Numbered from the stretch's first letter, positions 7,819 through 39,148 are shown. The stretch is 64,000 bases of DNA from Nanobdellota archaeon (GCA_043806015.1 JAZDHH010000008.1:37695-101694); one strand, 5' to 3'. The notes: a model not told the origin generated them from the sequence alone. Numbers and translations: made by a program.

Positions 7819-7854
7819 TTATACTATTTCTAGTAAATAAGTGACTTAGTTGAG

Positions 7855-7917
7855 TTTGTCCTTCATTTCAGACTTTGTCCGGTATGTCATCTTTGTCCGA
7901 GAAGAAGTAATCTGTCC
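7855..7917. repeat. Four iteron-like direct repeats TTTGTCC(G) spaced 18-19 nt apart
   Basis: Copies at 7855-7861, 7874-7880, 7892-7898 and 7911-7917 (the last reads TCTGTCC), between two convergent cargo genes. Confidence 0.6.
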
Positions 7918-7958
7918 GAAAAGTTATTCAGGCGACTTTAATTGGTGGGACGTGAGCG

Positions 7959-10345: not shown

Positions 10346-10556
10346 CTGAGGTATTTGAATGCTTTACGGTCGAATGTCTTGTGGTTATTTGACCAGTGAT
10401 TTCGGCTTTCTTATTGGATTTCCGGGGCATTTTCCAGTAGGGGCTCTTGCATTTTGGGCATATTATTGGTTCAGTCTCTTTTTTTGTTCTTGGTATCCAT
10501 TCGTGGCCACATCTTTCGCATTTGTAGCCTTCGACAGTGATCTTGATCTTTGCCAT
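10335..10556 (-). CDS. Zinc-ribbon protein heading the R-M-like operon
   Basis: 73 aa with CERCGHEW...CPKCKSPYW. It overlaps the methyltransferase start by 11 nt. Confidence 0.55.
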   Translation of the reverse strand: MAKIKITVEGYKCERCGHEWIPRTKKETEPIICPKCKSPYWKMPRKSNKKAEITGQITTRHSTVKHSNTSVAP

Positions 10557-10688
10557 GACTTTGACAATGTTTTACTCCTTTAAATAACTTTCTAAAGATT
10601 TGTTTATAAAGACTATTCTTTTATAAGTAATTTTACGATAAATTTATATATAAGTTATACTTATATAAGTTATACCTAACAAGGTAGG

Positions 10689-11831: not shown

Positions 11832-11843
11832 ATGTGCAAAGCC

Positions 11844-11852
11844 GAGGCGGGG
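11844..11852. repeat. Target-site duplication, right copy (GAGGCGGGG)
   Basis: Identical to 6372-6380. Confidence 0.7.
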
Positions 11853-11923
11853 ATAAAATTTAAAAAGAAGTACTCATTTTAGGGTAGTAATAAAATATTC
11901 ACGCGAAGAGGGGGCGAAATAGC

Positions 11924-14395
11924 ATGGATACCATTGATGATCTTAACCCTATTGATCAAGGTCTTGAAGAGGCCCGAGGTCACTTCAGACGGCGTATGAG
12001 ATTTTCAGCTGCTGCCTCATTGTTCGCTTTTCTCCTTGGAACCGTGCCTCCCGCATTTGCGACCGCTCAACAGGATCCGCAGAAAAAGGAGCCGGTCGGC
12101 ACTACGACAATCATAAAAGGTGTCCCTCAAACATACGAAATCGGAACCGTCGAGGGGTCGATTCAAGCCGATGAGGTAGACGGGCTGAAGCCACTTTTTT
12201 ATGAATGGGTCACCCTTCCGGATAGTACCAAAGAGATGGCAATAGTGAGAGATCGGTATGGCCTCTTCAGGAGCGGCGACTTTAAGGCTCGCGGCACCTG
12301 GCTGGACAGCGCCGGTTTGCCTGATTCAGTCCGCGAGGGCGATGCGGAACAGGTTACCCTTCCCTACGCTCCTCGCGGGACGCCGAGGATTGTCTTTCGG
12401 AATCCGGCGATGACCGAAGCCATCCAGGACGGTTATCTCTCTGCGGAGGAAACGCGGGCGATTGGTCCTGGCCTCTACGCGGGTTATGAATCCTTCGATG
12501 CGAACCCGGATGCAGGTATCTTGCTGCCAGAATCGATTAGGCTGCTCATTCACATCACCGGAGAAGAATCTGTTTTGGAGCGGAAAGTGATTGCACGCGC
12601 TCGAGAGATTGCTGATACGCATAATACCCCGGAACATCCGTACCAGCCAGAAAAGCTGGAAAAACTTGGCGATTTGCTGCACGAATACGACCTGCTCCTG
12701 ACGGAACGCGACAGCATGAAGGTCGAAGTCGATCTAATCAAATTCAATGGCAAGGGGATGACCGCCGAGGAAGCGGAGAGACACATCGGCGACCTGGAAA
12801 AGCGCTTGGCCTCCTTGAGGGACGGGCTAAGTGAGAAAACGACGCTTTTATTGGATGAGTCTAGGCGCGTGAGTGAATATCTCACCACCTCAGGCAAAGG
12901 AAATGTTGATGTAACAAGTGGAACAATCGCTGGTGCGGACCTCTCGGTGAGACGCTTCATCGGGGGGAAGCCTCGATCGGTCACGCTCAGAGACAGCACG
13001 CAGCTCCATCTCTTGCCAGCACAACTCGCTACTTTGGGAGTGGAAGGAAGTTATGAGCCGGACAAATGGGCGGGTCTCGGGACCCTGGAGATCCCCTTTG
13101 GCAGTCCCTTGCTCGTAGTGAGCGGAGGTATCAGCGGTGTCTCTTCAGCATCTTCCTTCGCTCGCTCGCATGACGAGGAACAGGGATGGGTTTCGCAAAC
13201 GATTGATGAACAGGGATATCAAGATCAAAACATCTTGCGGCTCTTGGCAGGATTAGGGCTGCGATGGGGTCGCGTCGCAGGTGATGTGAAATATGTCCGC
13301 GTCGAGAGAAGTGATGAGATCCAGGCTATCACCGACATCTTAACGACGACCCCTCTCGGCTCGGAAAAACGTCGGTATCAAGTCATGCATGCTGAAGACA
13401 CGAATGCAAATATCGGCACAGGTTCATTGACCTTACAGGCGCTCCAGCACTTGTATTTGACCGGACGCCTCCGCCTCCAATCCATTGACGGAAGCGGTCT
13501 TCGCGAGCAAACGTCCATCGCAACCGGGCATGATTCCATCCCTAATGTGAACAAAGCCGATATGCGGCTAAAAGACGGCTCCAGGACAGGGTGGGGGGCA
13601 GAGTTGGGTTATCAGCCAGAGCATGCCCGCCTCTTGTTGGCCTATTTTTCGAGCAGGGGAGATGTTGAGCGTAATGAGAGATGGAATATCAATCCCCTTC
13701 AGGGGACTTTCACCACGAACCTTTGGATGCCGGAATATGCGCATGAATCAGTCGTCATGTCAGGTTCGTGTGACCTTGGCAATCTCCGCCTCCTGGCGCA
13801 CGGCTCCTATGACGATTCCGGGATTGACACCGAGCTGAGGATCGATGGCGAGCTCACTCGCCTCGCGCATGAAGGGACGATCCGACGTGCCGGCAATCTC
13901 GGCCTTTATTGGAGGATGACAGAAGATGTCGCATCCCTGCTCCAGGGGATTGAGCTGCGGAGGATAATGGACGATGACGAGCTCATCCAGGCGTTCACCG
14001 GCCGCCGCCCCCATGAGGATGTCTACCGTCCAGGCATGGGAACCGTCAGGGCGAGAGGGCTCTGGAGAACCGATCGGGCCTCAGAGCAAGATGCTATCGC
14101 GGCAACCAATCGATCGGACAAGATCGATGTCTATGGCGTAACAGTTGAGGGTCTCGTCCCGCTGGGACGGATCTCTTTGGGGACAGGTGCGACGTATGAA
14201 AAGGAAAAGAGGAAAACCGCAGGAGAGCCTCTTCATCCGCACAACGATACAGGATATCGCTTTCATATTGCTCCTGTCGGAGTCATCCCCGTCGGCCATC
14301 TGGATCTATTGTTGAAGGTCGATCTTCAATGGAACCCAGCATTCGATGGAAAACATAGCGGTGGTCGGATAAGTGTCGGTTACGGAGGTCGGTAA
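11924..14395 (+). CDS. Secreted or membrane-anchored hypothetical protein with a beta-strand-rich C-terminal half
   Basis: 823 aa. It has an N-terminal anchor/signal (FSAAASLFAFLLGTVPPAFATAQQ). A GAGGGGG SD-like element and an AT-rich box lie upstream. Its stop is 1 nt before the next gene's ATG. Confidence 0.7.
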   Translation: MDTIDDLNPIDQGLEEARGHFRRRMRFSAAASLFAFLLGTVPPAFATAQQDPQKKEPVGTTTIIKGVPQTYEIGTVEGSIQADEVDGLKPLFYEWVTLPDSTKEMAIVRDRYGLFRSGDFKARGTWLDSAGLPDSVREGDAEQVTLPYAPRGTPRIVFRNPAMTEAIQDGYLSAEETRAIGPGLYAGYESFDANPDAGILLPESIRLLIHITGEESVLERKVIARAREIADTHNTPEHPYQPEKLEKLGDLLHEYDLLLTERDSMKVEVDLIKFNGKGMTAEEAERHIGDLEKRLASLRDGLSEKTTLLLDESRRVSEYLTTSGKGNVDVTSGTIAGADLSVRRFIGGKPRSVTLRDSTQLHLLPAQLATLGVEGSYEPDKWAGLGTLEIPFGSPLLVVSGGISGVSSASSFARSHDEEQGWVSQTIDEQGYQDQNILRLLAGLGLRWGRVAGDVKYVRVERSDEIQAITDILTTTPLGSEKRRYQVMHAEDTNANIGTGSLTLQALQHLYLTGRLRLQSIDGSGLREQTSIATGHDSIPNVNKADMRLKDGSRTGWGAELGYQPEHARLLLAYFSSRGDVERNERWNINPLQGTFTTNLWMPEYAHESVVMSGSCDLGNLRLLAHGSYDDSGIDTELRIDGELTRLAHEGTIRRAGNLGLYWRMTEDVASLLQGIELRRIMDDDELIQAFTGRRPHEDVYRPGMGTVRARGLWRTDRASEQDAIAATNRSDKIDVYGVTVEGLVPLGRISLGTGATYEKEKRKTAGEPLHPHNDTGYRFHIAPVGVIPVGHLDLLLKVDLQWNPAFDGKHSGGRISVGYGGR

Positions 14396-24650: not shown

Positions 24651-24995
24651 TCAAAACGATATTTTGTCCCCGATACGAGTCTTCGTCCTCGAAACAGTCC
24701 CCGCAGGCAGCTCGATGACCGTGCAGGCGGCCTTTTTCGGGCTGTAGAAGGCGAAGGGCAGAAGGCGCTCCTTGAGCTCGACGACCCGTTTCTTCTCGTC
24801 GAGGAAGAGCACGTCGATCGGGAAGAAGACGAAGAGCATGTGCAGCGAGACCCGTTGCTTCCCCTTGAAGAGGAAGAGGAACGCCTCGTCCTTGAGCTTG
24901 CGGTGGAACATCAGGCCGAGGGCCTTGGAAGGGATGCTGCGGCAGGCCGTGACCTCGGAAGCCAGGCGACGCTTCCTGGTGGCATTGGAAAGCAT
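24651..24995 (-). CDS. DUF192 family protein
   Basis: 114 aa with ...ALGLMFHRKL...FLFLF......LHMLFVFFPIDVLFLDEKKRVVEL......TVIELPAG......IGDKI, which matches the DUF192 (COG1430) pattern. A TATA box at 25018-25026 lies ~27 nt upstream. Confidence 0.8.
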   Translation of the reverse strand: MLSNATRKRRLASEVTACRSIPSKALGLMFHRKLKDEAFLFLFKGKQRVSLHMLFVFFPIDVLFLDEKKRVVELKERLLPFAFYSPKKAACTVIELPAGTVSRTKTRIGDKISF

Positions 24996-25078: not shown

Positions 25079-25086
25079 CTTAAATA
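25079..25086 (+). promoter_or_regulatory. TATA box (CTTAAATA) for the 25112 gene
   Basis: Lies ~29 nt upstream of the ATG at 25112, which implies a leaderless or near-leaderless mRNA. Confidence 0.5.
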
Positions 25087-25111
25087 GTTGTTATTCCCTA
25101 GCAGTAATTTT

Positions 25112-28100
25112 ATGGGGGGATCATTAACTGCTGCGGTTTTAGTTTCATTACTCGGCTTCTTTTTCTTCCAGGGCATGCTGATGGCTACTGCTGAGGACAT
25201 ACCTGTTTCCTTCGTTCCACAAGAGGGCGCAATCTACCGGGTGAGTGCAATCGATCATTCGAATCCTCGCTCGGTAAAAGCACCCACTTTCTTGGCATCC
25301 ATGCCTGCGGAGAGGCTCATGACGCTCCCCCAAGGAGTCTATATGCTGGAGCGAGAGGGTCCGGCTGGTGAACGGACGCTGGTGCGAAAGGAAGGAGAGA
25401 ACGACTTCCGCGTTTATGTCTATTTTAAACTTCTTTATGACAGCTATACGACCTATGGGTACGAAGAAGGCACCGTCTGGGAAGGGGGCAACATCCAATA
25501 CCAGTGCGAAGGCCCCTATGGAGGCAACTGCGATACCTACGAGGTCATGTGCGTCGATTATTACGAGGATTACCAATTCGACGAGTGCTGGGGGCGGACT
25601 AGCACGTTGATGAATGCGTGCAAGAACAAAATAACTGAGATATACGATCTGTGTTCATCCCAATCGTGGATGTGCCATTCAAGCGGGGTATCATCCTCGC
25701 ACTGGTTTGACAGTGCGGTATTGGAAAGCGCGGCAACCTTCGGGAATACGATGTATGTTTTCTATAATTGCACTACCCCCACGGCGCGTTGGTACAGCGA
25801 CTATCAAGGGGTCAATGTCATCGACAGGATCAGGTCATATACCGGATACAACCAAAACAGGTGGGAAGTGAGGGGAAGGACAGACTCTTACCACTATATT
25901 GATGAGATGACTTGCGAATCCGGGAAGGTTCGCGATGATAGTATCGTTGGCTACATATCGTATGATGACGATTATCGATATGAGAACGATTATCCCCATT
26001 ATCCTTGCCGTCTTTCAGACGGCCAGCAATGCACGCAGGGCAGCGAATGCCTGACCGGCCATTTCTGTGCCTGCGGCAAATGTAACACGACCACCGTCTG
26101 CTGCGGCAACAGCATCTGCGATGGCGGCGAGAACTACTCGAGCTGCCCTCAAGACTGCCCGAACCCTTGCCCCTACCCGAACGGGACCTCTGAGGACTGC
26201 GAGTGCGACTCTGACCCGGACTGCACGCCCTACGGCGACATGTACTGCCATCAGCAGTCAGGCTGGGATCCTTGCTTGCCGGTCATCCACACAAACGAGT
26301 GCCAGAGCGCCGGAACCTTCTTCTGCGAGAACGGCTGGGTGAAGAAGTGCGTCTCCCAGGGAAGCTACAACGTCAAGGTGCCAATCGAAGATTGCAATGG
26401 CCGCTATAAGTACTGCGATCCCCTGGTCGTGGACGGTGGCAACTGCTCGACAACGCAGCATGATGTCTGGATTGACTACGCCGATACGGGAGTAAAGGTG
26501 AACAAGCAAGCAGGTGATATTATTGAAATGAATATCTTTTTGCAGGCTACTGGGTCTGTGAACGTGCAGTACGATACTGACACCTTCTCCTCTGAATGCT
26601 TCGGTCAAAGGAACCTGCCGGCAGGGACATGGACATGCTCCTTCACTGTTCAGGAGGATGCACAACCCGGCATTTACACTCTTTGGGCGGATGACAAGCC
26701 CGCAATGGTCGAGGTTATAAGTTCGCCAGACTTCCTGGTCGTGACGCATTCAGAGAACCTTCGAAAGCATTACCCGAACGAGCAGGCCGGCGTCGACGCT
26801 GTCCTGAAGCAGGCGTACTGGAATGCGGTAGATAGGGGCGTTGTGTATGACCTCGCGCTGTACGATCTGGGAGTCGTTCATCCCTTCTCTTTGTATGGTG
26901 ATTACCATGAGAAACTCTCAGCTCCGACCTTTATGGACAATCTCTATGCCGTTCGAGTCTCTGAGTTTGTTGTGTCTCATTGCCAATCGTGTAGAGAGAT
27001 TATGGTGATAGGAGATGATTTTGTTCTTCCTTCTTATCGTTCCATAGCACCGGTGAGCAAGGGTTTGTCGCTTTTTGGGATTACGAATATTTTTGAAAGG
27101 CAAGAGGATGTCCCTATCTACACTGACGCATCCTTGATACCTCGAAACGTCAATACGCTTCAATTCAAGGACATGCCGTATGTATTCGCTCATTACAATT
27201 ACAAACATCACAGGCTCGAGGAAAAGACCGTTGTCTTCATCATTCCGGAGGCCGCATCGGCCGATTTATTACTTGCTATAAGAGACTTAGAAAATACTAT
27301 TGAAACGAAATATAACGCCTCAATCGAAGAAAAGCAATCATCCGCCATCCGGTGTGATTCTTTAGAATATTTTGATACCTTGCGCACGGCAACGCCGGTG
27401 ATTATCGGTGATCGTGAACATAACCAGGCCTTTTCCTGTTATCCTTTCCTTGACTTTTTATCGAATTCGGTCTCACTGGAGCTTAATGTCTGGGACAGCG
27501 ACGAGCCTGCGGTATTGATAACTTCTATGAATCCGAATATCACGGCGAATTTTAATTTGATGGTTCAAGATGACATCGTCGATTATATTGCGGCAAGAAG
27601 CATGACAATGACCGATAAGCTTCTTATGGTCGGGGGGGCAGTCGCGATTGGTGGAACCATTGTCGCTGCTGCCGCAGGGGCGCCCGTTATTGCCGCAGGC
27701 GCAGGCATCGTGGCCATTGTTGCTGCAGGGACGAGTGTAAGCAATGAATGCATCATAAAAAATGAGGGTGGGCGCAACTGGGTGATGTGCGCCGTGGATG
27801 TTGGAGTCAACGCGGCAGGGGGATTGTTAGGAAAAGGGGTCGCGAAAGTCGCATTCTGGGCAAAGGAACGGTTCATCGCAATAGGGGGTGATGCCGCCGT
27901 CAGGCTGATGACGAAATATTCAGATGATGTCATCCTTAATCTAAAAAAACTGATGACCTCTCACTGGGGCGGAGAGCGCTATGAGGCGTTTATGAATTTT
28001 TTACGACGGTATCGTGAAATGAGCGATATTGCAGATGATTTTTACAAATATGTGGCCAGATATAATGGTTTTGAGAAACAGACGTTAAAAGAATTTGAGA

Positions 28101-28576
28101 TATTAGATGAATATGTAGATTATTACCCCACTCAGAATCCTTTTAAAAATTCTGTAAGCGATTTCGATTTGGTCGGCGCATTCGAGTCCCCAAATACGCG
28201 GATTTTAATTAACGGTCATTCGATCGATGAATCAGCAAGATTGCTTGAAGGGAATGTTCTTACTAATCGTGGATGGAGACATATTGTTGCCGATCATGTT
28301 GGACTTGCACATACACCTGGAAAAACTGCGTTTATCAAGATTGTTGAAGGTCAAGAAGAATACATGAATGAACAAGAGGTTATGGATTTAATAAAGAGTG
28401 CATTAAAAACTGGGTGGGAAGATACTTTAAATAATAATGACCCTGAAAATGTTAAATTAATCGTTCTGACATTACCTGAAGGATCCTATAGGCGAGGTAT
28501 TCGAGTGATTGTTGATAAGAACGATGGTGAAGTTATTTCAGCATATTTGACAAATCAGATTCAGGATGCACCATGA
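25112..28576 (+). CDS. Large secreted Cys-rich protein with a Gly/Ala-zipper hydrophobic segment and a low-GC C-terminal toxin-like module (polymorphic-toxin architecture)
   Basis: The signal is MGGSLTAAVLVSLLGFFFFQGMLMATA. A Cys-rich region includes CGNSICDGGENYSSCPQDCP. GGAVAIGGTIVAAAAGAPVIAAGAGIVAIVAAG lies at nt ~27630-27730. The final ~230 aa are encoded by ~33% GC DNA and end ...GWRHIVADHVG...RGIRVIVDKNDGEVISAY. Confidence 0.8.
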   Translation: MGGSLTAAVLVSLLGFFFFQGMLMATAEDIPVSFVPQEGAIYRVSAIDHSNPRSVKAPTFLASMPAERLMTLPQGVYMLEREGPAGERTLVRKEGENDFRVYVYFKLLYDSYTTYGYEEGTVWEGGNIQYQCEGPYGGNCDTYEVMCVDYYEDYQFDECWGRTSTLMNACKNKITEIYDLCSSQSWMCHSSGVSSSHWFDSAVLESAATFGNTMYVFYNCTTPTARWYSDYQGVNVIDRIRSYTGYNQNRWEVRGRTDSYHYIDEMTCESGKVRDDSIVGYISYDDDYRYENDYPHYPCRLSDGQQCTQGSECLTGHFCACGKCNTTTVCCGNSICDGGENYSSCPQDCPNPCPYPNGTSEDCECDSDPDCTPYGDMYCHQQSGWDPCLPVIHTNECQSAGTFFCENGWVKKCVSQGSYNVKVPIEDCNGRYKYCDPLVVDGGNCSTTQHDVWIDYADTGVKVNKQAGDIIEMNIFLQATGSVNVQYDTDTFSSECFGQRNLPAGTWTCSFTVQEDAQPGIYTLWADDKPAMVEVISSPDFLVVTHSENLRKHYPNEQAGVDAVLKQAYWNAVDRGVVYDLALYDLGVVHPFSLYGDYHEKLSAPTFMDNLYAVRVSEFVVSHCQSCREIMVIGDDFVLPSYRSIAPVSKGLSLFGITNIFERQEDVPIYTDASLIPRNVNTLQFKDMPYVFAHYNYKHHRLEEKTVVFIIPEAASADLLLAIRDLENTIETKYNASIEEKQSSAIRCDSLEYFDTLRTATPVIIGDREHNQAFSCYPFLDFLSNSVSLELNVWDSDEPAVLITSMNPNITANFNLMVQDDIVDYIAARSMTMTDKLLMVGGAVAIGGTIVAAAAGAPVIAAGAGIVAIVAAGTSVSNECIIKNEGGRNWVMCAVDVGVNAAGGLLGKGVAKVAFWAKERFIAIGGDAAVRLMTKYSDDVILNLKKLMTSHWGGERYEAFMNFLRRYREMSDIADDFYKYVARYNGFEKQTLKEFEILDEYVDYYPTQNPFKNSVSDFDLVGAFESPNTRILINGHSIDESARLLEGNVLTNRGWRHIVADHVGLAHTPGKTAFIKIVEGQEEYMNEQEVMDLIKSALKTGWEDTLNNNDPENVKLIVLTLPEGSYRRGIRVIVDKNDGEVISAYLTNQIQDAP

Positions 28577-29130
28577 TACATATTGATAAATTTGGCTTGA
28601 CAGTAATCCAATATAATAAATTTGGACTTAAGAATGAGAAAGAGTATCTTCGGATATGTAAGAATCCCTTGCAGGAAAGTGATGTTACTTACACATATTA
28701 TTTTGACAACGTGAATATCAAAAATAGCGGTGATTTTTTTACAAGTGTCCATACGGTTTTAAACGATCTTGCTTCTTCTGAAAAAGATGAATATTTTTGG
28801 TTTGATGACGGTGGCGAACATTTTCTATATATTCAGGTTAGTGGCTCGAATGTCAGAATTTTTGTAAATAATGATAATCAACATTCTGAACTTGGAGTTA
28901 CAACCAGCAGAAATGGGAATAATATGAAATATTGTGCAGAATTTATAATGGAGAAAAATATTTTTTATCTTCAACTCATCTTGGCTTTTAATAGTATATT
29001 AAAACGCTTTGAATTACCGCTAAAAGAACAAATATTGAATTCAAAAGAGCATCAACATTTTTTACAATATATTCTAAAAAAAAGGGCGATCTGCAAAGAA
29101 TTATTGGTGAAATATAAGCATGTCCTCTAA
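28573..29130 (+). CDS. Small cytoplasmic protein, candidate immunity protein for the upstream toxin-like module
   Basis: 185 aa with no signal or TM. There is an ATGA start/stop overlap with the upstream gene (28573-28576). It shares the low GC of the toxin-like tail and overlaps the next gene's start by 11 nt. Confidence 0.6.
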   Translation: MIHIDKFGLTVIQYNKFGLKNEKEYLRICKNPLQESDVTYTYYFDNVNIKNSGDFFTSVHTVLNDLASSEKDEYFWFDDGGEHFLYIQVSGSNVRIFVNNDNQHSELGVTTSRNGNNMKYCAEFIMEKNIFYLQLILAFNSILKRFELPLKEQILNSKEHQHFLQYILKKRAICKELLVKYKHVL

Positions 29131-32100
29131 AATTTGGATCATTTGGATAATTGGATTGCTCTTATTAAGCTCAGTAATCGCTTTTTCCAACGAAACCGCC
29201 GGTGTCGCCCGCATCGTCGGAGAGTCGCCCACCGAGATGCTCCGTCAGATGAAGCGGACTGATCTCAACATCAATGACGCATCCTATTATACAATTGACA
29301 TGCAGACCGGGTATACCAAATACCAGATTCTCAATGAGCAATTCAATACGCGGTTAAGGAGCAATAGCAACCTGCTTCCCCAAGGCCAGAGCGCACTTTC
29401 ATGGCCAACCGTATCCTCTGCCATGCAGAATCTGAATCGCAATGAATTAGTGATCCTTGAGAGCGGTGGAGACATCCCTCCCTTACGAGCATATGATAAC
29501 CTGTTCGCGCCTTTTTATTATCGCCCGCTTTATCCACAAGATGTTACTCCTTGGCAGACTAGTGTTGAACAGAACAACCCGCTCATTCTTTTTGATGGGC
29601 CATATACGGGGGGATATCTGCCCAAAGAGGATTCCTTTGTCTCCCGCCTTGTCCGCGACTCAACGATCATCGCGCCGACCGCGTTTCATTCTCCTCAATT
29701 CACGAAATCTTTCTTGTGCTCGATTTGGGATGGGAAGACAATCGGAGAGGTATTTAGGGATGCGAGAAATTTCCATTATGAAGGTGGTTCGACTTCCGGA
29801 AGGGACAATCTCATCGGTCTCGTGCTTCAGTCCTACATGTTGTATGGCAACCCCCTTCAAAAAATTCACATTGGATGGACGGCAACAGATCGACAGCAAA
29901 TAAAGGACCTATGTGAGAATGATCATCAAAATCTTGCACCAGATATTGAATTTTTAGAGAATGTCGACGGCAATCCCAAATTCCGAAAGCATTTACTTTT
30001 CCAAATCCCAGAAGTAAACGTCTTATCTTATAATGGAAGTTCAATAATCAATGCATCTAATACGTACCAACGGATGGAAATCGGAGAATTGATCCTTCCG
30101 ATGGCAACCAGGACAACTCATTTTCCGCTCCGGACATTAATAACCAATTATTCGATTGTCAGCATCGGAGATCCCTTAGAGATGAATGTGCCTAATCTAA
30201 CTGATTATCCCATCTACGGGTCTCGATCTTGTCTCCCGAATAGTGAAAACGTATCTATCGATATTCAATTAGATCGTGCAGAAAATGGCATGGACGCCAT
30301 TTTTTCCTTTTTCCCGGTCAAGGTTGTCAATTGCACATCCGGCTCGGTCATCTTGTATCGAGAATTTAATTATACGATTGATTACATAACCTTCAGTCCA
30401 ACCTACATCAAAGAGCTCACGTTTCCATCGGACGTGAGAAAAAATGAGAAAATTGATCTATTCATCCAATTGATGCCTGTCTCGATTAATTTAACTAATA
30501 TTTCAATCGTAATTAAGGATAAAAACGATTCATTTCAATGGTTGGTAGAGACCAACTCCACCATCACCTCACTCAACGCCTCCTTCTTCGCCCCGTTGCA
30601 GGAAGGCCTGCAGGAATACTCCGTCGAGATCATCGACGGCAACGACACGGTCAGCTACTATCCCTTCCAGGTGTATGTCACCGTGCTCGAGCTTTCCGCC
30701 GGCATCCCGGTCACCACGCCGCCCAGCCCGGTCATCAACCTCTCGTTCCAGTCCTACCACAACGAGACCTTCGCGCTGAACGCGTCCTACTACCTGCTCA
30801 AGAACCGCACCATCCTCGCCCAGGGATCCTTTGACCAGATGATCGCCCCAGGTCAGAACCTGCATCTGCTGTCCTTCACCGGCCTCAACAAGGGCAACCA
30901 GAGCTATGATCTCCTGGTCGAGACTGCCTACCTCGGCGAGCGGCAGTCCCAGACCTTTCTCCTCACCACCAACAACCCGCCGCTTCTCTACCTGGTGGCA
31001 GATGCCATTGAAGAATCGCAAATGGCGCTTGTAAACGTCTCTGCCATTGACCCGGACGCTGACCCTGTCGCCCTTGCCATCAACGACTCCCGCTTCCAGC
31101 GCATTGCCGACAATTTCGTCTGGCAGACCGGATACCATGACGCCGGCTCCTATGATGTCATGATCTCGGCTTTTGACGGCCTACTGATGACCAATCGGAG
31201 CATCACCGTCCAGGTGGCAGAAAAGCTGTGGTGCAACGACACTGTCACCGGCTTCCAAGTGCTCGACCATAACATCGGGAACTGCTCTTCGCTCGGCATC
31301 ATCCTGGGAGAGAACGCCTCGCTGTATTGCGACGGCGTCAATATTTCGGGCACCGGCAGCGGCACCGGCATCTGGGTAGCAGGCAGCCACGCGACCGTGG
31401 CCGGCTGTACGATTACGCAGTTCGGAACGGGCATGCTTCTTCAAGGCTCTAACGGCTCGTTCGGCGGCAATGCCTTCCTCAGCAACCAGCTCGGCATCAG
31501 GGTCAATGGCTCCTGGAACACGATATATCAAAACACCTTCACCAACCAGAAGAACGCGAACGAGACCTTGAGCAATAACGCTTGGAACCTCTCCCTCACC
31601 GGCAACAACTGGTCTGACTTCCCTCAGAACCCCGGCTTCCCCTACCGGTATGAGGTCCCCGGCCCTGGCGACGGCGTCGACTGGCACCCCATCTATAACT
31701 CCACCAATCACCCTCCTGTCATGTCCAACCTGACGAACCAGTCTTTCCCAGAGAACCAGACGCTGATCATCGACGTGAATGCGACAGATCCCGATAATGA
31801 CACGCTGACATTCGGGACGAACGCGTCGCTCGCCCTTCCGAGCCCTTCGTCCTTCAATTCGAGCACCGGGCTCTTCCGGTGGACAACGACCTTCAACGAT
31901 TCGGGAAGCTATGTTGTCTCTTTTAATGTCACCGACGGGATGTTCAGCGACAGGAAGACCATCACCATCACCGTCACGAATGTCAATCGTCCGCCTGTCC
32001 TCGCGTCGATGCAGAACTACACCCTCACCGAGAACCAGACGCTGCTCGTCGACGCGAACGCCACCGACCCGGACAACCAATCGCTGGCCTTCTCCCTCCT

Positions 32101-35100
32101 GGCGCCGCCCACGAACATGACGATCAACAGCTCGACCGGCCTCATCCGATGGACGCCGGGCTTGAGCCAGGCCGGCAACTATACGATCACGGTCCGGGTG
32201 ACGGACGGGCTCCTCAATGACACAAAGCAATTTATGATCACTGTCCAGAATTACCTCTCTTGCGGAGATTCCATCTCCCAGAGCACGATATTGACCCGGG
32301 ACCTGAATTGTCCAGGCCGGGGCCTGACGGTCATAAGCGCGAACGTGGACCTGGACTGCCAGGGCCATGCCATCCGAGGCTCGAACCTGGATGACGGCGT
32401 CTGGATCCAGGACCTGGCCAATGTGACGGTCAGGAATTGCGAGGTATCCGGTTTCCTTGAAGGTGTCTTCTGGTACGGTGGCTCCGGCTACAGGCTCCTG
32501 GACAGCTACCTCCATAACAACATCTATGTCGACCTGCGGGTGAACGGAGTGAGTGTTTCGGGTGTGTCAGGGAACCGGTTGGCAGCTTCCCAGCGAGGCA
32601 TCCATCTTGGCAATTTGGGCAGTATGGACTCGACGAGGATCAACATCACGAATAACACCATCTCCGCAAACGAATGGGGCATCGAATCCCAGGACGCCGT
32701 GAACAACACCATCTGGAACAACACCTTCCTGAACAACCTTGTCCAGGCGGTCTCGACGTACCAGAACGACTGGAACAGGACGGTCGGGAATTATTGGTCT
32801 GATTTCCCGAATAACACCGGCTACCCCCTGCGCTATGAGATCGGCGGGGGCGGCACCGGCATGGGGGGCGTCGATTACGCCCCTATCTGGGTCTTCGCCC
32901 CGCCGCAGGTCACCAACCTCTCGGCAATCCCCAACCCGGTCGGCCAAGACAGGCCCTTGAACCTTTCCGCGACCGTCTTATCGCCTCTGCCCTTGAGCGT
33001 TGTGTTCGAGATCGACCACCTGATGAACCTCTCCACGCGCAACATGAGCTCACGGTACATGAACCTGAGCCCTGCCACCTATCCGCTGGGGAACCACACC
33101 TTCAGGGTCATCGCCAGGGATTATCGCAATCAGACGAATGCCTCGGAATCCATGGTTTTCACGGTGCGGGATGTGACGCCTCCCCGGGTCACGAACCTGA
33201 CCGCCATCCCGAACCCGGTCGTGCAGTACCTGCCGATCAACCTCAGCGCCAGGGTCACTGACCAGAACAACGTGAGCGCGGTCCTCTTCGAGATCGATGG
33301 CCTGAAGAACCTCACCGGCTCCAGGGTCAACGATGTCTACTTCACCCTGCAGGCGAACACGAGCGTCCCTGGAGCGCATGCCTTCCGGGTGATCGCCAAC
33401 GACTCGCAGAACAACATCAACCGGAGCGAGCTTTCGACGTACAATGTGACCGCAGGGAATCGCCCGCCGTCGATCAATTCCTCGCCGGTCACGGTTGCGA
33501 CAGAGACCTTCATCTACCTCTATGACGTCAATGCCTCTGATCCTGATAACAACACGCTGTCCTATGCGCTGGCCCAGTTCCCGCAGAACATGACGATCAA
33601 CAGCTCGACCGGCCTCATCCGATGGATGCCGGGCTTGAGCCAGGCAGGCCTGTACAACATCACCGTTGTCGTGACCGACGGCCAGCTGAACGCCAGCCAG
33701 GACTACCTGCTCACTGTTCAGAACTTCCTCTGGTGCGGTGACTCTATCCTGGGGAACCTGACGCTCGGCCATGACATCGGCCCCTGCGACCGGGGATTGG
33801 TCATCGCGGCAAACAACCTGCTCTTCAACTGCTCCCGCCATCGCATCTTCGGCAGAGGGAATGGGACTGCCATCGCCATCGTCAACAGGACCGGCGTGCA
33901 GGTAACGGACTGCCTCGTGGACACGTTCGCTTACGGCATCGCCGCCAACGGGACCAATCTCAGCGCATTCACTCGGAATCGCCTTTTCAACCACTCGCAA
34001 GGAGCCTTGATGCTCAACGGGAAAGGCCTCCGGGTTTCCGCGAACAATATCTCTGAGGCGAATTGGGGAATCATCCTGGACACGGGCCGCGAGGCTGCTG
34101 TCGAGGACAATGCCATCGATTTCGCGGATTACGGGATCCTTACCTTTGTCCAGAGCGCCTCGAACATCTCGCGGAATAACATCTCTCACGCAGCGGCGGG
34201 CATCTTGCTCTACGGTTCCTCCTTCCTGATCGTGGCGCAGAACAGGGTCATGGACAGCAGCGAGGGGCTGTTCGGTTACGGCTTGAGCAACGGACGCCTC
34301 GAGATGAACAGGCTCACGGGGAATGCCCAAGGGATGGTCCTTGATGGGGCAATCTCCTGGATGAATATCACCAACAATACGCTCATCGGAGGGTACACGG
34401 GCATTTTCTTTTACGACACCATGAACAGCCGGGTGACTGGGAACAACATCACCGGCCAGGTCGTCGGGCTATTCATGAACGCGTCGAGCCAGAACACCGT
34501 CGCCCAGAACGCCTTCAGCGCGGCGGTGAACGCGAACGAGACCGCGGATTCGCTGAACAACAGGTGGAACACAAGCATCGGCAACCAATGGAGCGATTTC
34601 CCGCAGAATCCCGGGTATCCTCTCACCTATATCGTGCCGGGCCCGGGCAATGGCGTCGACTATCGGCCCGTCGGCCAGAATCACCCGCCTGTCCTCGCGC
34701 CGATCCCGAATCGCACCGTCAATGAGTCCGAGACTCTCGTGCTCGACATCAACGCCACGGACGAGGACAACCAGACTCTCGTCTTCGGGACCGATGCCTC
34801 GGCTGTCTTACCCGGGGCAGTGCAGTTCAATTCCACGACCGGGATCCTCGTCTGGACGCCGGCTCAGGGCGACGCCGGGACTTATGTCGTGCTGTTCAAT
34901 GTCACTGACGGGATCCTCGCGGACAATGGCACTTCCTGGATAACGGTCGTGGAGGACAACCTTCCGCCTACGCAGGGGGACCCGGTATTGGTGTCCGAGT
35001 TCGGCTCCAACCTAACGGAGGAGAACCTCATATGCATGAACCAGAGTACCCTGGATCCTGAAGGCGGCAGGGTCGAGAACGTCTTCAATTGGATGCGGGT

Positions 35101-38100
35101 CGGCGATCCCTTCTACACCCTGCTCATGCCGTTCCCTTCAGACGAGGCATTGATTAAGGACTATGCCGGGCAGAGTCATGGCAACAAGAGCTATGGCCCG
35201 ACATGGAACGATTCTGCATACATCATCGAGTTTTCATTAGGTCAGCCGAGAAAATCCATCGACATCCCTGGATCAGTCCTGCGGGAGAACCATACGCTCT
35301 GCGTCTCCTATATCCCCCTCTCCAACCCGCCGGATGACAGCTGGCAGAACAATTCCAACATCTTCTACTATGACGGGAAGACCTGGAACACCAGCCGCAT
35401 TGACGTCGAGTTCGGCAAGGATTACGACCTGAGCGTCGAGATGTACGATTATCTCGGCGGCATCTCGGGAGACTGGAATTCGCCGAACAATGTCTCGGTA
35501 CCCTTCGTGGAGAATTGGTATTGCTATGTCTTCAGGAACAATGCCTCGCTTCGGAACTATGTCAACGGCACCTTCCGCCAGCAGACGAACCTGACCGGTA
35601 AATGGTACAACCTTTCTACGATCGACAAGATCAACCTGGGCAAGGGGGGAAGCGGCCGGAACAACGTGAGCATCACCAACTTCCTGGTCGTCGGAGAGGC
35701 GCTTTCGGATGCCGAAATCGCGATGATCCAGGCGAGAAGATGGGATCGGAGGCACAGCGACAGCACGAGGGTAGGGGATGTGTGGCAGTGCGCCGTCACT
35801 CCCAATGACGGCCTGGACGATGGCATCACCAAGGAGAGCAACAGCCTGGCGATCAGGCCGCTCGGCTGCGGAGACCCGATACGCCAGAGCACGCTGCTCG
35901 ATTATGATCTTATCAACTGCACAGGCAACGGCTTGGAAATCAGGGCCAGCAACATCACCCTGGATTGCGGAGGCCATTCCCTTCTGAGCAGGACTCGGCA
36001 GGGTTATGGGATCTATATCCACGAGCAGTCAGCCATCACAATGAAAGATTGCATCATTAAGAATTTCAGCGTCGCGGCCCTCGTGAATCACAGCCAAATT
36101 GTTTCCTTGTCCGGCTTCCTGGCCGAGAATAATTCCGAAGGGATTTATTTCCGAGATAGCAGCCACGTCATCATCACCAACAACACTGTCCAAAACCATT
36201 CCTATGATGGCATTTCGGTCTTCTCGGTGAGCTTCCCTTCCACGAACGTGACTGTTTCCAGAAATCATGTCCTGAGGAATCGCTATGGCATCTCCCTCTC
36301 CGTCAATAAGAGCCTCATCTCCCAGAACCTTGCCGAGCTCAACCAGATTGTCGGCATCGTCGTCCAGAACAACGCAACTCAGGTGACGATCGCGGACAAC
36401 AGGGCGACCAGGAACCAGCAGGGGATCATCCTCTACTCTGTTTCCTCCCCCAACATATCCGTGCAGCACAATGTCGTGGCAAACAACACCTTTTATGGGA
36501 TACGGCTCTGGAAGACCCGAAATGCTGCGGTTTCCCATAATATCGTGCAGCGCAATGCGGAGGGCTACCGCCTGGACGAGGCTGTCGGCAACCGCCTCTG
36601 GAACAACACCCTTGTGAACAACACCGTAAGCGCGAATGAGACATCCACCGCGACAGGGAATCAGTGGAACCTTAGCACGGTCGGCAACTATTGGTCTGAC
36701 TTCCCCGACAACCCCGGCTACCCCTTGAGCTATGTCGTTCCCGGGCCAGGCGACGGCGTTGATTGGCATCCCTGGGGAGCGTTCATCAACATCACCAATC
36801 ATCCGCCGGTCATGGGGAACCTTTCGAATCAGTCGATCTTCGAGAACCAGACGCTGGTCATAGACGTGAACGCGACAGACCCTGATAATGACACCCTCTT
36901 CTACGGGACAAACGCTTCACTTGCCCTTCCAAGCCCGTCCTCCTTTAACACATCCACCGGCCTCTTCCAATGGACGCCTTCCTTTAGCAGCGCAGGCGCC
37001 TATGCGGTCGGTTTCAACGTCTCGGACGGCAACCTGAGCGACCGCAGGGCCATCACCATCACGGTCGTCAACGTCAACAGGCCGCCGGTCATTACGACAT
37101 CGCCGCCTCTCAACGCCACCGAAGGCGTCCCTTATATCTATGATATGAATGCCACTGACCCGGACAACGAGACGCTGACCTATCTCCTGCCCGTCGCTCC
37201 AGCGAACATGTCTATCAATGCTTCCACCGGCCTCATCCGGTGGGTGCCGAACGCGAGCCAGGTCGGCAACCACAGCGTCGTGGTCAGGGCGACTGACGGC
37301 CAGGCGAACGCGACGCAGTCCTACACCCTCCGCGTCTTTGACTTCCTTTACTGCGGCGACAACATCACGCAGAGCACGGTCATGGTGAACGACGTGCTCA
37401 ACTGCCCGGGCTTTGGCCTGCAGATCCGGTCGGACAACATAACCCTTGACTGCAACGGCCACCGCATCACCGGCGCTCCAGGAACCTACGGGATCCACAT
37501 GACCCAGCGGAACAACATTACCGTGAAGGGCTGCACTGTCGAGGGCTTCAGCCATGGCACGGCGGTCTACCAATACCGTAATCGCATCATCAATAATACT
37601 TTCCGGCTGAATAGTGAGGGCATCTACCTCCACAGCATCAACGGCAACAACCTCATCGAGGACAACACGCTCGATGAAAACTTAAACTACGGCCTGAGGA
37701 TCCACGAAAGCTCGGCGAACGTGGTTCGGAACAATGTCATGCGGGAAAATGGGCTGGTCGACCTGTTCCCCGAATCATGGGGAGCTGACAATCCCTGCGC
37801 CAACCAGGTCGAAGGCAACATCGGCTCGGGCAACAGGCCTATCCTCTTTGTCAATAGCCCATCTACCGTCTATGGTCTCTCTCTTTCCGAGCTTGTGCTT
37901 TGCATGGCGCACGGGTCGACGGTCACGAATATCACGGTCGAAGGCTCTGCGGTGTTGCAGAATAATGGCCTTTATTTCATGATGACCAATACCTCGACAG
38001 TCACCGGCTCCCGCTTCATCGGGAATCGCGTCGGCATCAGCGCTTTTTCCAGCAGCAGGAACGCCATCGCTGGCAACCAGTTTGAGGCGAACGGAGAGAA

Positions 38101-39148
38101 CGCCTATGAAAATGACCGTGCAGTGGAGAATGCCTGGAACCTCAGCACCATCGGGAACTGGTGGTCTGACTTCGGGCAGAATCCAGGCTATCCGTATTAT
38201 TACGAGATTTCCGGCCCTGGCGCTGGCATAGATTGGCACCCGATCGGCGGCATCCTGCAAATCGACCCCAACCGATCCTCTGTCTTCCTGACCGCTTCGA
38301 ACATGGCCGGCATGACCACCTGCCCTGCCGGCGACAGCCCTCCCTATCAGTTCCTTGCCGTCGTTCTCCGCAACGCAGGAGGCAATCCTGTATCAGGGAT
38401 CCCGGCAAGTCGCTTCACCTTCCTCGTATCTCCGGTGCCTGGCACCAACACCCAATGCGTAGGCAGCTGCTCGGCGACCTTCAATCCATGGGATGCGCAG
38501 ACGAATGCCTCGGGAACCATCCGCTTTGAGATCATTGGCGACACCTCCATGGTGGGGAACCTGAGCATCCAGGCCAGGATTGACAACCAAACGATTCCTG
38601 ATGCCCCTGTGCTCCCCTGCAAGCCCTTGGACATCACGGTCGACGGGGCGGTGGGACTTCCTGATTTCACATTGTTTGGCCGAGATTATAACAGTACCGA
38701 ATGGAGGAGCGATTTCACATGGGATGGGTATGTCGGTTTGGGCGACTTCAGCATGTTCGGCGGGCATTATACACATCACAATGGCTCGATGGACCTTGGC
38801 ATCCCGCCATTGTCAGAAGATGACCTTGCGGCATTACTGCTTAAGGAAGGCTCAGAAAGCGAAGATGGGGAAACGGGATCCGCGGAAGCCGAAGGATCGC
38901 CCATCGCTGAAGTCAGCGAGCCGGAAGCTACCCCTCAGGATGAAGTGATTGAAAGGGCTACCGACGCTATCCTCACGGAAGACCCTGGAGAAGTCATTGT
39001 TGTCCCCGCTGGCAGCCCCTTGGAAGCAATCACGCAGAATCAAAGCGAGGACTCGCAGAATGCTTCTCTCATTTCATCTGATGATAGATCTTCAGGATCG
39101 CCTATTTTTCTTAAGGTAACTGACCCTGTATTCTTAAGCAAATCCTAG
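29120..39148 (+). CDS. Giant (3342 aa) surface adhesin-like protein: repeated right-handed beta-helix (PbH1/NosD-like) modules, cadherin-like Ig domains and a C-terminal dockerin-like pair
   Basis: Signal anchor IWIIWIIGLLLLSSVIAFS. The module cap N-WSDFPxNPGYPxxYxxPGPGxGVDxxP occurs five times (nt ~31610, 32796, 34588, 36690, 38158). Ig units read NHPPVxxNLxNQSxxENQTLxIDVNATDPDNDTL...VTNVNRPPV. The dockerin-like repeats are DITVDGAVGLPDFTLFG and DFTWDGYVGLGDFSMFG. Confidence 0.9.
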   Translation: MSSKIWIIWIIGLLLLSSVIAFSNETAGVARIVGESPTEMLRQMKRTDLNINDASYYTIDMQTGYTKYQILNEQFNTRLRSNSNLLPQGQSALSWPTVSSAMQNLNRNELVILESGGDIPPLRAYDNLFAPFYYRPLYPQDVTPWQTSVEQNNPLILFDGPYTGGYLPKEDSFVSRLVRDSTIIAPTAFHSPQFTKSFLCSIWDGKTIGEVFRDARNFHYEGGSTSGRDNLIGLVLQSYMLYGNPLQKIHIGWTATDRQQIKDLCENDHQNLAPDIEFLENVDGNPKFRKHLLFQIPEVNVLSYNGSSIINASNTYQRMEIGELILPMATRTTHFPLRTLITNYSIVSIGDPLEMNVPNLTDYPIYGSRSCLPNSENVSIDIQLDRAENGMDAIFSFFPVKVVNCTSGSVILYREFNYTIDYITFSPTYIKELTFPSDVRKNEKIDLFIQLMPVSINLTNISIVIKDKNDSFQWLVETNSTITSLNASFFAPLQEGLQEYSVEIIDGNDTVSYYPFQVYVTVLELSAGIPVTTPPSPVINLSFQSYHNETFALNASYYLLKNRTILAQGSFDQMIAPGQNLHLLSFTGLNKGNQSYDLLVETAYLGERQSQTFLLTTNNPPLLYLVADAIEESQMALVNVSAIDPDADPVALAINDSRFQRIADNFVWQTGYHDAGSYDVMISAFDGLLMTNRSITVQVAEKLWCNDTVTGFQVLDHNIGNCSSLGIILGENASLYCDGVNISGTGSGTGIWVAGSHATVAGCTITQFGTGMLLQGSNGSFGGNAFLSNQLGIRVNGSWNTIYQNTFTNQKNANETLSNNAWNLSLTGNNWSDFPQNPGFPYRYEVPGPGDGVDWHPIYNSTNHPPVMSNLTNQSFPENQTLIIDVNATDPDNDTLTFGTNASLALPSPSSFNSSTGLFRWTTTFNDSGSYVVSFNVTDGMFSDRKTITITVTNVNRPPVLASMQNYTLTENQTLLVDANATDPDNQSLAFSLLAPPTNMTINSSTGLIRWTPGLSQAGNYTITVRVTDGLLNDTKQFMITVQNYLSCGDSISQSTILTRDLNCPGRGLTVISANVDLDCQGHAIRGSNLDDGVWIQDLANVTVRNCEVSGFLEGVFWYGGSGYRLLDSYLHNNIYVDLRVNGVSVSGVSGNRLAASQRGIHLGNLGSMDSTRINITNNTISANEWGIESQDAVNNTIWNNTFLNNLVQAVSTYQNDWNRTVGNYWSDFPNNTGYPLRYEIGGGGTGMGGVDYAPIWVFAPPQVTNLSAIPNPVGQDRPLNLSATVLSPLPLSVVFEIDHLMNLSTRNMSSRYMNLSPATYPLGNHTFRVIARDYRNQTNASESMVFTVRDVTPPRVTNLTAIPNPVVQYLPINLSARVTDQNNVSAVLFEIDGLKNLTGSRVNDVYFTLQANTSVPGAHAFRVIANDSQNNINRSELSTYNVTAGNRPPSINSSPVTVATETFIYLYDVNASDPDNNTLSYALAQFPQNMTINSSTGLIRWMPGLSQAGLYNITVVVTDGQLNASQDYLLTVQNFLWCGDSILGNLTLGHDIGPCDRGLVIAANNLLFNCSRHRIFGRGNGTAIAIVNRTGVQVTDCLVDTFAYGIAANGTNLSAFTRNRLFNHSQGALMLNGKGLRVSANNISEANWGIILDTGREAAVEDNAIDFADYGILTFVQSASNISRNNISHAAAGILLYGSSFLIVAQNRVMDSSEGLFGYGLSNGRLEMNRLTGNAQGMVLDGAISWMNITNNTLIGGYTGIFFYDTMNSRVTGNNITGQVVGLFMNASSQNTVAQNAFSAAVNANETADSLNNRWNTSIGNQWSDFPQNPGYPLTYIVPGPGNGVDYRPVGQNHPPVLAPIPNRTVNESETLVLDINATDEDNQTLVFGTDASAVLPGAVQFNSTTGILVWTPAQGDAGTYVVLFNVTDGILADNGTSWITVVEDNLPPTQGDPVLVSEFGSNLTEENLICMNQSTLDPEGGRVENVFNWMRVGDPFYTLLMPFPSDEALIKDYAGQSHGNKSYGPTWNDSAYIIEFSLGQPRKSIDIPGSVLRENHTLCVSYIPLSNPPDDSWQNNSNIFYYDGKTWNTSRIDVEFGKDYDLSVEMYDYLGGISGDWNSPNNVSVPFVENWYCYVFRNNASLRNYVNGTFRQQTNLTGKWYNLSTIDKINLGKGGSGRNNVSITNFLVVGEALSDAEIAMIQARRWDRRHSDSTRVGDVWQCAVTPNDGLDDGITKESNSLAIRPLGCGDPIRQSTLLDYDLINCTGNGLEIRASNITLDCGGHSLLSRTRQGYGIYIHEQSAITMKDCIIKNFSVAALVNHSQIVSLSGFLAENNSEGIYFRDSSHVIITNNTVQNHSYDGISVFSVSFPSTNVTVSRNHVLRNRYGISLSVNKSLISQNLAELNQIVGIVVQNNATQVTIADNRATRNQQGIILYSVSSPNISVQHNVVANNTFYGIRLWKTRNAAVSHNIVQRNAEGYRLDEAVGNRLWNNTLVNNTVSANETSTATGNQWNLSTVGNYWSDFPDNPGYPLSYVVPGPGDGVDWHPWGAFINITNHPPVMGNLSNQSIFENQTLVIDVNATDPDNDTLFYGTNASLALPSPSSFNTSTGLFQWTPSFSSAGAYAVGFNVSDGNLSDRRAITITVVNVNRPPVITTSPPLNATEGVPYIYDMNATDPDNETLTYLLPVAPANMSINASTGLIRWVPNASQVGNHSVVVRATDGQANATQSYTLRVFDFLYCGDNITQSTVMVNDVLNCPGFGLQIRSDNITLDCNGHRITGAPGTYGIHMTQRNNITVKGCTVEGFSHGTAVYQYRNRIINNTFRLNSEGIYLHSINGNNLIEDNTLDENLNYGLRIHESSANVVRNNVMRENGLVDLFPESWGADNPCANQVEGNIGSGNRPILFVNSPSTVYGLSLSELVLCMAHGSTVTNITVEGSAVLQNNGLYFMMTNTSTVTGSRFIGNRVGISAFSSSRNAIAGNQFEANGENAYENDRAVENAWNLSTIGNWWSDFGQNPGYPYYYEISGPGAGIDWHPIGGILQIDPNRSSVFLTASNMAGMTTCPAGDSPPYQFLAVVLRNAGGNPVSGIPASRFTFLVSPVPGTNTQCVGSCSATFNPWDAQTNASGTIRFEIIGDTSMVGNLSIQARIDNQTIPDAPVLPCKPLDITVDGAVGLPDFTLFGRDYNSTEWRSDFTWDGYVGLGDFSMFGGHYTHHNGSMDLGIPPLSEDDLAALLLKEGSESEDGETGSAEAEGSPIAEVSEPEATPQDEVIERATDAILTEDPGEVIVVPAGSPLEAITQNQSEDSQNASLISSDDRSSGSPIFLKVTDPVFLSKS

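Follow-up and report, generated by a model that had tools for sequence, protein, structure and literature searches.

Does a stretch of DPANN archaeal DNA encode a polymorphic toxin, and does the small gene that begins on the stop codon of the candidate toxin gene encode the matching immunity protein? The stretch, here called the window, comprises 64,000 nucleotides (nt) of a Nanobdellota archaeon assembly (GCA_043806015.1, JAZDHH010000008.1:37695-101694), and an initial annotation had proposed such a pair at 25112-29130. We consider it probable, from sequence comparison, that the open reading frame (ORF) at 25112-28576 and the 185-amino-acid (aa) ORF at 28573-29130 (ORF185) are a polymorphic toxin gene and its cognate immunity gene, and that they belong to a family found across DPANN-type archaea. 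The module consists of a scaffold, a junction, a replaceable tip and a coupled small ORF, and a gene for a giant adhesin-like protein almost always comes next. The 1154-aa protein reported for the locus is present, and its ORF was confirmed. Its parts, together with ORF185, are as follows; GC stands for guanine plus cytosine content, and P0003 is a homolog described below.

25112-28576, plus strand: putative polymorphic toxin gene, read as an ORF of 1154 aa and a stop codon, with homologs found
25112-25192, plus strand: signal-peptide-like N-terminus, aa 1-27, from a hydrophobicity scan
25505-26638, plus strand: Cys-rich extracellular region, aa 132-509, with 34 of the 40 Cys of the protein
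26717-27619, plus strand: alpha/beta body domain, aa 536-836, with invariant GDD[YF]V.P..R, CxxC (C624/C627), C748, C776 and NVW
27620-27742, plus strand: Gly/Ala-zipper hydrophobic stretch of about 40 residues (aa 837-877), split into two halves by a G-A-P turn
27743-27802, plus strand: junction (pre-toxin) motif NEC..KN.GG.NW..C, which includes the conserved Cys pair C880/C893; orphan tips start here, and a short way beyond it the tips diverge
27803-28060, plus strand: linker, aa 898-983, which holds the GC change-point (nt 27989) and the end of similarity to P0003 (about aa 970)
28061-28573, plus strand: C-terminal tip, aa 984-1154, an N-terminal subdomain (NPF.N...DSPN) followed by a putative toxin domain of about 125 aa
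28199-28573, plus strand: putative toxin domain of the tip, aa 1030-1154, placed by alignments, phmmer relatives and a profile comparison with PDB
28573-29130, plus strand: ORF185, candidate cognate immunity protein of 185 aa, predicted cytoplasmic, with an ATGA overlap (28573-28576) with the toxin stop codon

We searched 5.8 billion proteins with the full protein by a word-indexed method, and found two homologs: P0002 (1572 aa), 39% identical over 85% of the query, and P0003 (1731 aa), which has only the body in common with the window protein. An exhaustive HMMER (phmmer) search with aa 909-1154 gave further relatives, namely the full-length P0005 with the same tip as the window protein (45% identity), two short-bodied versions (P0011 and P0012) and four stand-alone tips (P0006, P0007, P0008 and P0009). 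Over the body, P0002 and P0005 are 39-45% identical to the window protein. Scanning one representative genome of each prokaryotic species for a sequence pattern added 27 loci, every one of them from Nanoarchaeia, Woesearchaeota, Micrarchaeota or metagenome-assembled genomes with similar labels. There are thus about 35 homologs in DPANN-type archaeal assemblies, with body, hydrophobic stretch and Cys-loop junction in common and with differing C-terminal tips. Common to the family are the body domain with its invariant motifs GDD[YF]V.P..R, CxxC and NVW, the two-part hydrophobic stretch and a [ND][ES]C...G..WC loop. Within that loop C880, N884, G887 and W890 never vary in the family alignment, and junction variants are visible across relatives.

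No family protein bears a name or a Pfam domain in the protein collection. In Pfam, NCBIfam, PADLOC, PHROGs and PDB sequences, nothing significant was retrieved with the full protein (1154 aa), with its last 231 aa or with ORF185. Metagenomes were scanned for close relatives, both of the whole protein and of the tip, and gave none; viral contigs likewise gave no relatives and hence no hint that a virus carries the gene.

At least five tip classes occur on this one scaffold. Past aa 900, P0003 is 8-16% identical to the window protein, and P0005 is 32-46% identical up to the end. The BLAST alignment with P0003 stops at aa 970, adjoining a GC change-point at about aa 960, and both of these boundaries lie some 70-80 aa downstream of the junction motif. 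The window's own tip family is found again in L011, L017 and L023. Other loci end in domains that score above the Pfam gathering threshold: Scabin-like ADP-ribosyltransferase (L025, L026 and L032) and Enterotoxin_a (L024); the P0003 tip is homologous to the ADP-ribosyltransferase tips. The HExxH peptidase-like tips are recognized by motif and a sub-threshold SprT-like match only, and the nuclease-like tips by a D...E.K / PD-(D/E)xK motif and a sub-threshold YhcG match only. The swappable C-terminal tip that had been claimed for this locus is therefore seen directly in comparison: homologs keep the body and carry unrelated tips, four of them recognized ADP-ribosyltransferase toxin domains. One further tip (L022 11939-12928) has weak, sub-threshold PI3/PI4-kinase-like and HEPN-like matches; a kinase-type toxin tip would be unusual.

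The proposed coupling of a small, cytoplasmic-looking gene also holds. The ATGA overlap at 28573-28576 is real, and the hydrophobicity scan finds no hydrophobic segment in ORF185. An ORF starts at -29 to +19 nt from the toxin stop codon in 28 of the 29 loci with a complete 3' end, and the same ATGA overlap occurs in 10 loci, window included; in L035 the next ORF is the giant-protein homolog itself. ORF185 is unlikely to have arisen by chance, because the probability of 185 open codons is about 2e-7 (at 30% GC, with about 8% stops among random codons) and two homologs occupy the same position in other loci. These two are the only ones: L004_159 (= P0014, 159 aa; blastp E-value 3e-7), directly 3' of the stand-alone tip P0006, and L003_148p (E-value 2e-5), directly 3' of P0005. 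P0005 and P0006 have the tips closest to that of the window, and the two small proteins match each other with an E-value of 2e-13. A profile search with ORF185 of the 5.8 billion proteins yielded no homolog except P0014.

The downstream ORF varies with the tip. Seven of 300 locus pairs have homologous downstream ORFs, and in six of the seven the tails are homologous too (Fisher p=7e-7, indicative rather than exact because locus pairs are not phylogenetically independent). Where tips are 40-52% identical the partners are recognizably related (25-50% identity), and with more distant tips the partners are not related. Other tip subtypes have other families of small ORFs after them, among these one of 143/144 aa that follows P0007 and P0009. 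We also tried to relate the ORF185 family to the small-ORF families of other tip subtypes; this was rejected, as profiles show no link (hmmsearch, hhalign).

Two side observations concern these small ORFs. The main gene L006_580p is followed by three tandem paralogs of 137-149 aa that are 50-63% identical (L006 1755-3049; L005 3-1291), and such a triplet after one main toxin gene could be an expanded immunity array. The small ORF after the orphan tip P0007 (L005 1920-2351) has a match to the WapI immunity family (E-value 8e-4) that is below threshold (20 bits, cut-off 27) and points toward a tip and immunity arrangement.

Orphan cassettes, which the initial annotation had proposed searching for, were found in relatives (L005, L006, L008 and L010). 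The order in L005/L006 and in L008/L009 is main gene C-terminus, small ORF or ORFs, stand-alone tip, small ORF and a further fragment. In L010 the main toxin is separated from the giant gene by two orphan tips, each with an ORF of about 190 aa after it. The orphan P0009 starts inside the hydrophobic stretch and retains the Cys-loop motif, as expected if the conserved junction is the recombination site.

Base composition changes abruptly within the toxin gene. Change-point analysis places the break at nt 27989 (about aa 960), where GC falls from 0.507 to 0.327, and the 1.2-kb segment at 28001 has the lowest GC among 628 such segments of the 64 kb. The break opens a tract that extends past the candidate pair:

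27989-30540, no strand: low-GC tract, about 0.33-0.39 GC against 0.556 for the whole window, covering the tip and ORF185 and reaching into the 5' part of the giant gene

The low-GC tail of about 33% had been noticed correctly, but the value of about 60% given for the 5' half of the gene was not reproduced, the gene body averaging 0.505 (range 0.41-0.63). ORF185 shares the low GC, as had been said; the tract is however not confined to the pair, and persists through the first 470 or so codons of the giant gene, the remainder of which is at 0.57. This tract is a probable horizontally acquired or recombined segment; genomes of the relatives range from 23 to 52% GC. Tip, immunity gene and adhesin head may have been acquired or recombined together as one unit. 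Two chimeric ORFs in relatives, L005_251 (L005 2361-3116) and L006_189p (L006 4119-4685), join about 76 aa resembling the N-terminus of the giant protein to a toxin-body-like segment that corresponds to aa 431-572 of the window protein. These chimeras and the extent of the low-GC tract suggest recombination involving all three genes.

What might the tip of the window protein do? A small nuclease or RNase-type fold had been suggested, and profile comparison partly bears that suggestion out. The top PDB match of a 14-sequence profile of the minimal domain is 7m5f_C, with a borderline E-value of 0.0029 over 98 of 114 positions; the full-tip profile matches the same chain, 'Toxin CdiA', weakly (E-value 0.26). 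7M5F is the CdiA-CT of Serratia marcescens BWH57, a BECR-fold toxin of the RNase superfamily according to its depositors, in which the conserved residues H47, E51, H52 and R89 are candidates for the active site and are covered by the immunity protein (PMC8616854). The profile match aligns G.xHIxxEH, and the corresponding feature in the window is:

28280-28297, plus strand: candidate catalytic motif H1057-I-V-A-D1061-H1062, aligned with H47/E51/H52 of CdiA-CT(BWH57)

H1057, the first His, is invariant in 14 of 14 tips. Two Pfam matches below cut-off, PBECR1 (8e-4) and EndoU_bacteria (0.021), likewise point to a BECR RNase, and so does the sub-threshold WapI match of the small ORF that follows the related orphan tip P0007. 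The AlphaFold2 (AF2) model of the tip, made from a 9-sequence alignment, has a mean predicted local distance difference test score (pLDDT) of 88.6 and a predicted template modeling score (pTM) of 0.86. In it the N-terminal subdomain is made up of a helix and a long hairpin, and the C-terminal 125 or so aa begin with a strand and the GWRHIVADH helix, continue with a hairpin and a core helix and end in three strands. We lean, with moderate confidence, toward an RNase of the CdiA-CT(BWH57) kind for the tip of the window protein.

The scaffold upstream of the tip looks like that of a secreted protein, as had been described. Residues 1-27 are hydrophobic and signal-like, as judged by the hydrophobicity scan and not by a dedicated predictor; the homologs P0002, P0003 and P0005 have classical, K-rich signal peptides. 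The claimed Cys-rich region stands, given the 34 Cys within aa 132-509, many of which are invariant across three homologs in the alignment. Profile searches with the body domain gave no Pfam or PDB sequence match. Its AF2 model, from a 6-sequence alignment, has a pLDDT of 68.6 overall and above 85 in the C-terminal half. With that half Foldseek retrieved the flavodoxin-like domain of BcsB (E-value 1e-4) and the S-layer cell-wall anchoring domain 9fsa of Methanococcus voltae (E-value 1.3e-4, template modeling score 0.59); these matches of a modeled structure would fit a membrane-proximal surface location. A gingipain/C25-like assignment of the body domain was considered and rejected, as Pfam and PDB profiles give it no support and Foldseek favored the flavodoxin-like BcsB domain and the S-layer anchor.

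The Gly/Ala-zipper hydrophobic stretch noted at the outset is present at 27620-27742, and its pattern of two halves and a turn recurs in relatives with a conserved G-x-x-P turn. It is probably a helical hairpin, judging by this pattern. The window protein has no Cys after C893; that its tail is otherwise free of Cys but holds a conserved pair suggests an extracellular disulfide. The halves around the G-x-x-P turn, the Cys pair beyond them and the shortness of the halves in about 10 relatives together argue for a tip located outside the producer.

We propose the following mechanism for the polymorphic toxin and immunity pair. The toxin would be exported via Sec and displayed at the cell surface, and the adhesin-like partner would supply contact with a neighboring cell. 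The hydrophobic hairpin would insert into the target membrane and carry the tip across, by analogy with toxin translocation hairpins. In the target the tip would act as a BECR-fold RNase of the CdiA-CT(BWH57) type via H1057, D1061 and H1062, and in cells that carry the cassette ORF185 would bind and block it. The 33%-GC segment of tip and ORF185 would have been gained by recombination from a lower-GC relative.

Several points weigh against this reading. The co-variation of tips and small ORFs is drawn from the non-independent locus pairs noted above, and known immunity families give no match to ORF185 or to most of the other downstream ORFs. Orphan cassettes are a feature of relatives; none lies within the 64-kb window. 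The match of the tip to 7M5F is borderline, as stated, and the second His of its motif is lost in subtype-B tips. The RNase-type fold, on the side of which the profile match stands, draws no significant Foldseek match with the tip, either in PDB (best E-value 0.37, a CdiA chain only at rank 33) or in BFVD (best E-value 0.034). No dedicated secretion or delivery machinery was identified, and the toxicity, neutralization, delivery route and target of the tip are all predictions. Finally there is the topology of the hydrophobic stretch, since a single span, if that is what it forms, would put the tip in the cytoplasm of the producer.

This last point leads to the main rival explanation, in which the module is a membrane-anchored suicide, abortive-infection or toxin-antitoxin-like device. 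A single span would hold a Cys-rich ectodomain that senses a virus or a neighbor, and the variable C-terminal enzyme would sit in the producer's own cytoplasm, restrained by the small ORF as antitoxin. The stretch does pass the 19-aa transmembrane threshold in the window protein and in about 14 of the 24 relatives that have the region, the body domain is similar to an S-layer anchoring domain that lies close to the membrane, and the small ORFs lack export signals; a variable effector with a coupled neutralizer is, moreover, also the logic of defense and toxin-antitoxin modules. The same stretch fails the threshold in the other 10 or so relatives, where its halves are too short or too polar for a membrane span, and its 40 or so residues, divided in two by a conserved G-x-x-P turn, fit instead a hairpin with both ends on the same side. 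The Cys pair that follows, in an otherwise Cys-free tail, suggests an extracellular disulfide. Arrays of orphan tips with immunity genes that begin from the junction motif are marks of polymorphic toxins and not of toxin-antitoxin or abortive-infection modules, and the PADLOC defense models gave no match. We regard this rival as unlikely.

That the gene encodes a surface or adhesion protein with a non-toxin variable C-terminus, the small ORFs being assembly or export chaperones or unrelated fast-evolving genes and the low GC merely marking a horizontally acquired surface-protein island, is suggested by its place in a 31-kb run of secreted Ig/PKD/beta-helix proteins, by the lack of a significant Pfam match for the window's tip and ORF185 and by the lack of an enzyme match for the tip in Foldseek, but is very improbable given tips of homologs with toxin domains above Pfam thresholds (Scabin-like, Enterotoxin_a), a tip profile that matches a characterized toxin of contact-dependent growth inhibition (CDI) with its candidate active-site motif conserved, and small ORFs that co-vary with the tip and not with the body, the opposite of what a body-specific chaperone would do.

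The polymorphic toxin and immunity pair is joined by a third gene, for the giant protein:

29120-39148, plus strand: secreted adhesin-like protein of 3342 aa with Pfam NosD/beta-helix, He_PIG, Big_9 and cadherin-like repeats
29120-31219, plus strand: its N-terminal domain of about 700 aa, the conserved third-gene part of the module

The giant ORF overlaps ORF185 by 11 nt, which makes the three genes a coupled unit. More than 20 loci have the N-terminal domain of the giant protein, 24-44% identical, just 3' of the toxin gene and small ORF; this domain has no Pfam or PDB match. Its GGDIPP.R resembles GDDFV.P..R of the toxin body, and a paralogous origin of the two domains was considered and rejected (hhalign probability 0.15%).

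A more far-reaching and distinctly tentative idea is that the three-gene unit is an independently evolved, archaea-specific form of contact-dependent delivery used by DPANN episymbionts. The adhesin would dock the cell onto a host or rival, and the Gly/Ala hairpin would drive the tip through the target membrane without a dedicated secretion machine. The system would serve to exploit or kill host archaea or to shut out competing symbionts, and the switching of tips by recombination would track the resulting arms race.

The start of the toxin gene was also examined. There are two possible starts for the plus-strand ORF that ends at 28576, TTG at 25088 and ATG at 25112, the latter giving the 1154 aa. 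Upstream lies a promoter-like element:

25080-25086, plus strand: TATA-box-like TTAAATA, about 26 nt 5' of ATG 25112 and directly abutting TTG 25088

Because of this spacing ATG 25112 is the likelier start. By general archaeal promoter architecture TTAAATA suggests a leaderless or short-leader transcript that would open the operon. The apparent 940-nt gap before the toxin gene is mostly filled by a DUF192 (COG1430) gene on the minus strand (24651-24995; Pfam E-value 6e-20), which leaves the toxin gene an upstream region of its own of only about 115 nt.

The wider window is archaeal, with split rpoA'/rpoB genes and an AglB/STT3 gene, and the organism lacks an outer membrane. The RNA polymerase genes, of use for placing the organism, lie on the minus strand (47102-53097): rpoA' of 900 aa, rpoB' of 599 aa and, upstream, a 496-aa ORF. 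The candidate toxin gene and its two partners are part of a run of consecutive large secreted or surface genes that extends for about 31 kb on the plus strand (11924-43268), with products of 823, 1921, 424, 856, 1154, 185, 3342 and 1345 aa. The 1921-aa protein has 12 PKD repeats, the run as a whole holds Ig, PKD and beta-helix proteins, and the proteins of 823 and 1345 aa match nothing in Pfam. At 1979-5194 on the minus strand is a 1070-aa AglB/STT3 oligosaccharyltransferase with a C-terminal FKBP-type peptidyl-prolyl isomerase domain, which looks an unusual fusion. A second low-GC island (0.39-0.44), at about 7000-12000, contains an N6 DNA methylase gene (8432-10345, minus strand) and a DDE transposase gene (10689-11831, plus strand); the DNA of this island is probably mobile or foreign.

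Polymorphic toxins play a major part in competition among bacteria, and archaeal ones are known almost only from predictions; we know of no characterized archaeal toxin-immunity pair with such a scaffold. The locus offers a compact pair for testing, a tip of 125 aa in which three candidate catalytic residues can be named and a partner of 185 aa. The scaffold family was seen here only in DPANN-type archaeal assemblies, and its body domain, junction motif and adhesin partner are not in Pfam. The locus also offers a way to study how very small archaea that depend on a host combat or exploit their neighbors without the secretion machines of bacteria, and hairpin-mediated delivery, if true, would be a new route of protein translocation.

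Makarova and colleagues are said to have predicted archaeal polymorphic toxins in 2019; the newness of the scaffold family was judged against Pfam and protein-collection annotation, and overlap with their catalog is possible. An earlier survey found polymorphic toxin systems generally absent from archaea save a few methanogens and haloarchaea (Zhang et al., 2012, Biol Direct 7:18; PMC3482391). Further archaeal ones were predicted later, including DPANN loci (Fig. 2B of PMC6393860). Like those loci and, reportedly, those of the 2019 predictions, the loci described here are computationally predicted toxin-immunity loci and include candidate colicin-D/BECR and PD-(D/E)xK tips; a signature such as the DUF4157 Zn-protease (PMC6393860) is absent here.

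Diphtheria toxin, pore-forming colicins and the Rhs/prePAAR proteins of type VI secretion have hydrophobic helical hairpins or transmembrane segments just upstream of their catalytic cargo. The likeness of the Gly/Ala hairpin to these is a mechanistic analogy only, with no sequence or fold relationship.

The closest single comparison is with CdiA-CT/CdiI of Serratia marcescens BWH57 (7M5F). The profile match spans nearly the whole length of the toxin domain and places H-x3-[ED]-H on the proposed active site, and the order of elements in the AF2 model agrees with the published description (PMC8616854), although 7M5F is not among the top Foldseek matches of that model. In both cases a toxin, predicted in ours, is paired with a small, tightly linked protein, a neutralizer in CdiI and a candidate one in ORF185; ORF185 (185 aa) nevertheless has no similarity to CdiI (98 aa). 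The window has no CdiB, FHA repeats or VENN motif, and two-partner secretion as in CdiB/CdiA is impossible as a means of delivery.

Among bacterial polymorphic toxins at large (the Sec-exported type II secretion system or 'T2SS' class, MafB, WapA and Rhs; PMC3482391), the differences lie in the scaffold and in the host. The window scaffold lacks RHS/YD, FHA, LXG, MafB-N and PAAR domains, its body domain, Gly/Ala hairpin with Cys-loop junction and 700-aa partner domain have no Pfam model, and the hosts are DPANN-type archaea. Because the named bacterial scaffolds and secretion partners are absent, the module would work like CDI, Rhs or MafB but is a member of none. The likenesses lie in the layout: a signal peptide, a long conserved N-terminal scaffold, a junction motif, a hypervariable toxin tip (RNase, ADP-ribosyltransferase, nuclease-like or peptidase-like), a co-varying candidate immunity gene downstream and, in relatives, orphan cassettes of tip and immunity gene. 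As far as sequence can tell, the family has the layout features by which polymorphic toxin systems are defined (PMC3482391).

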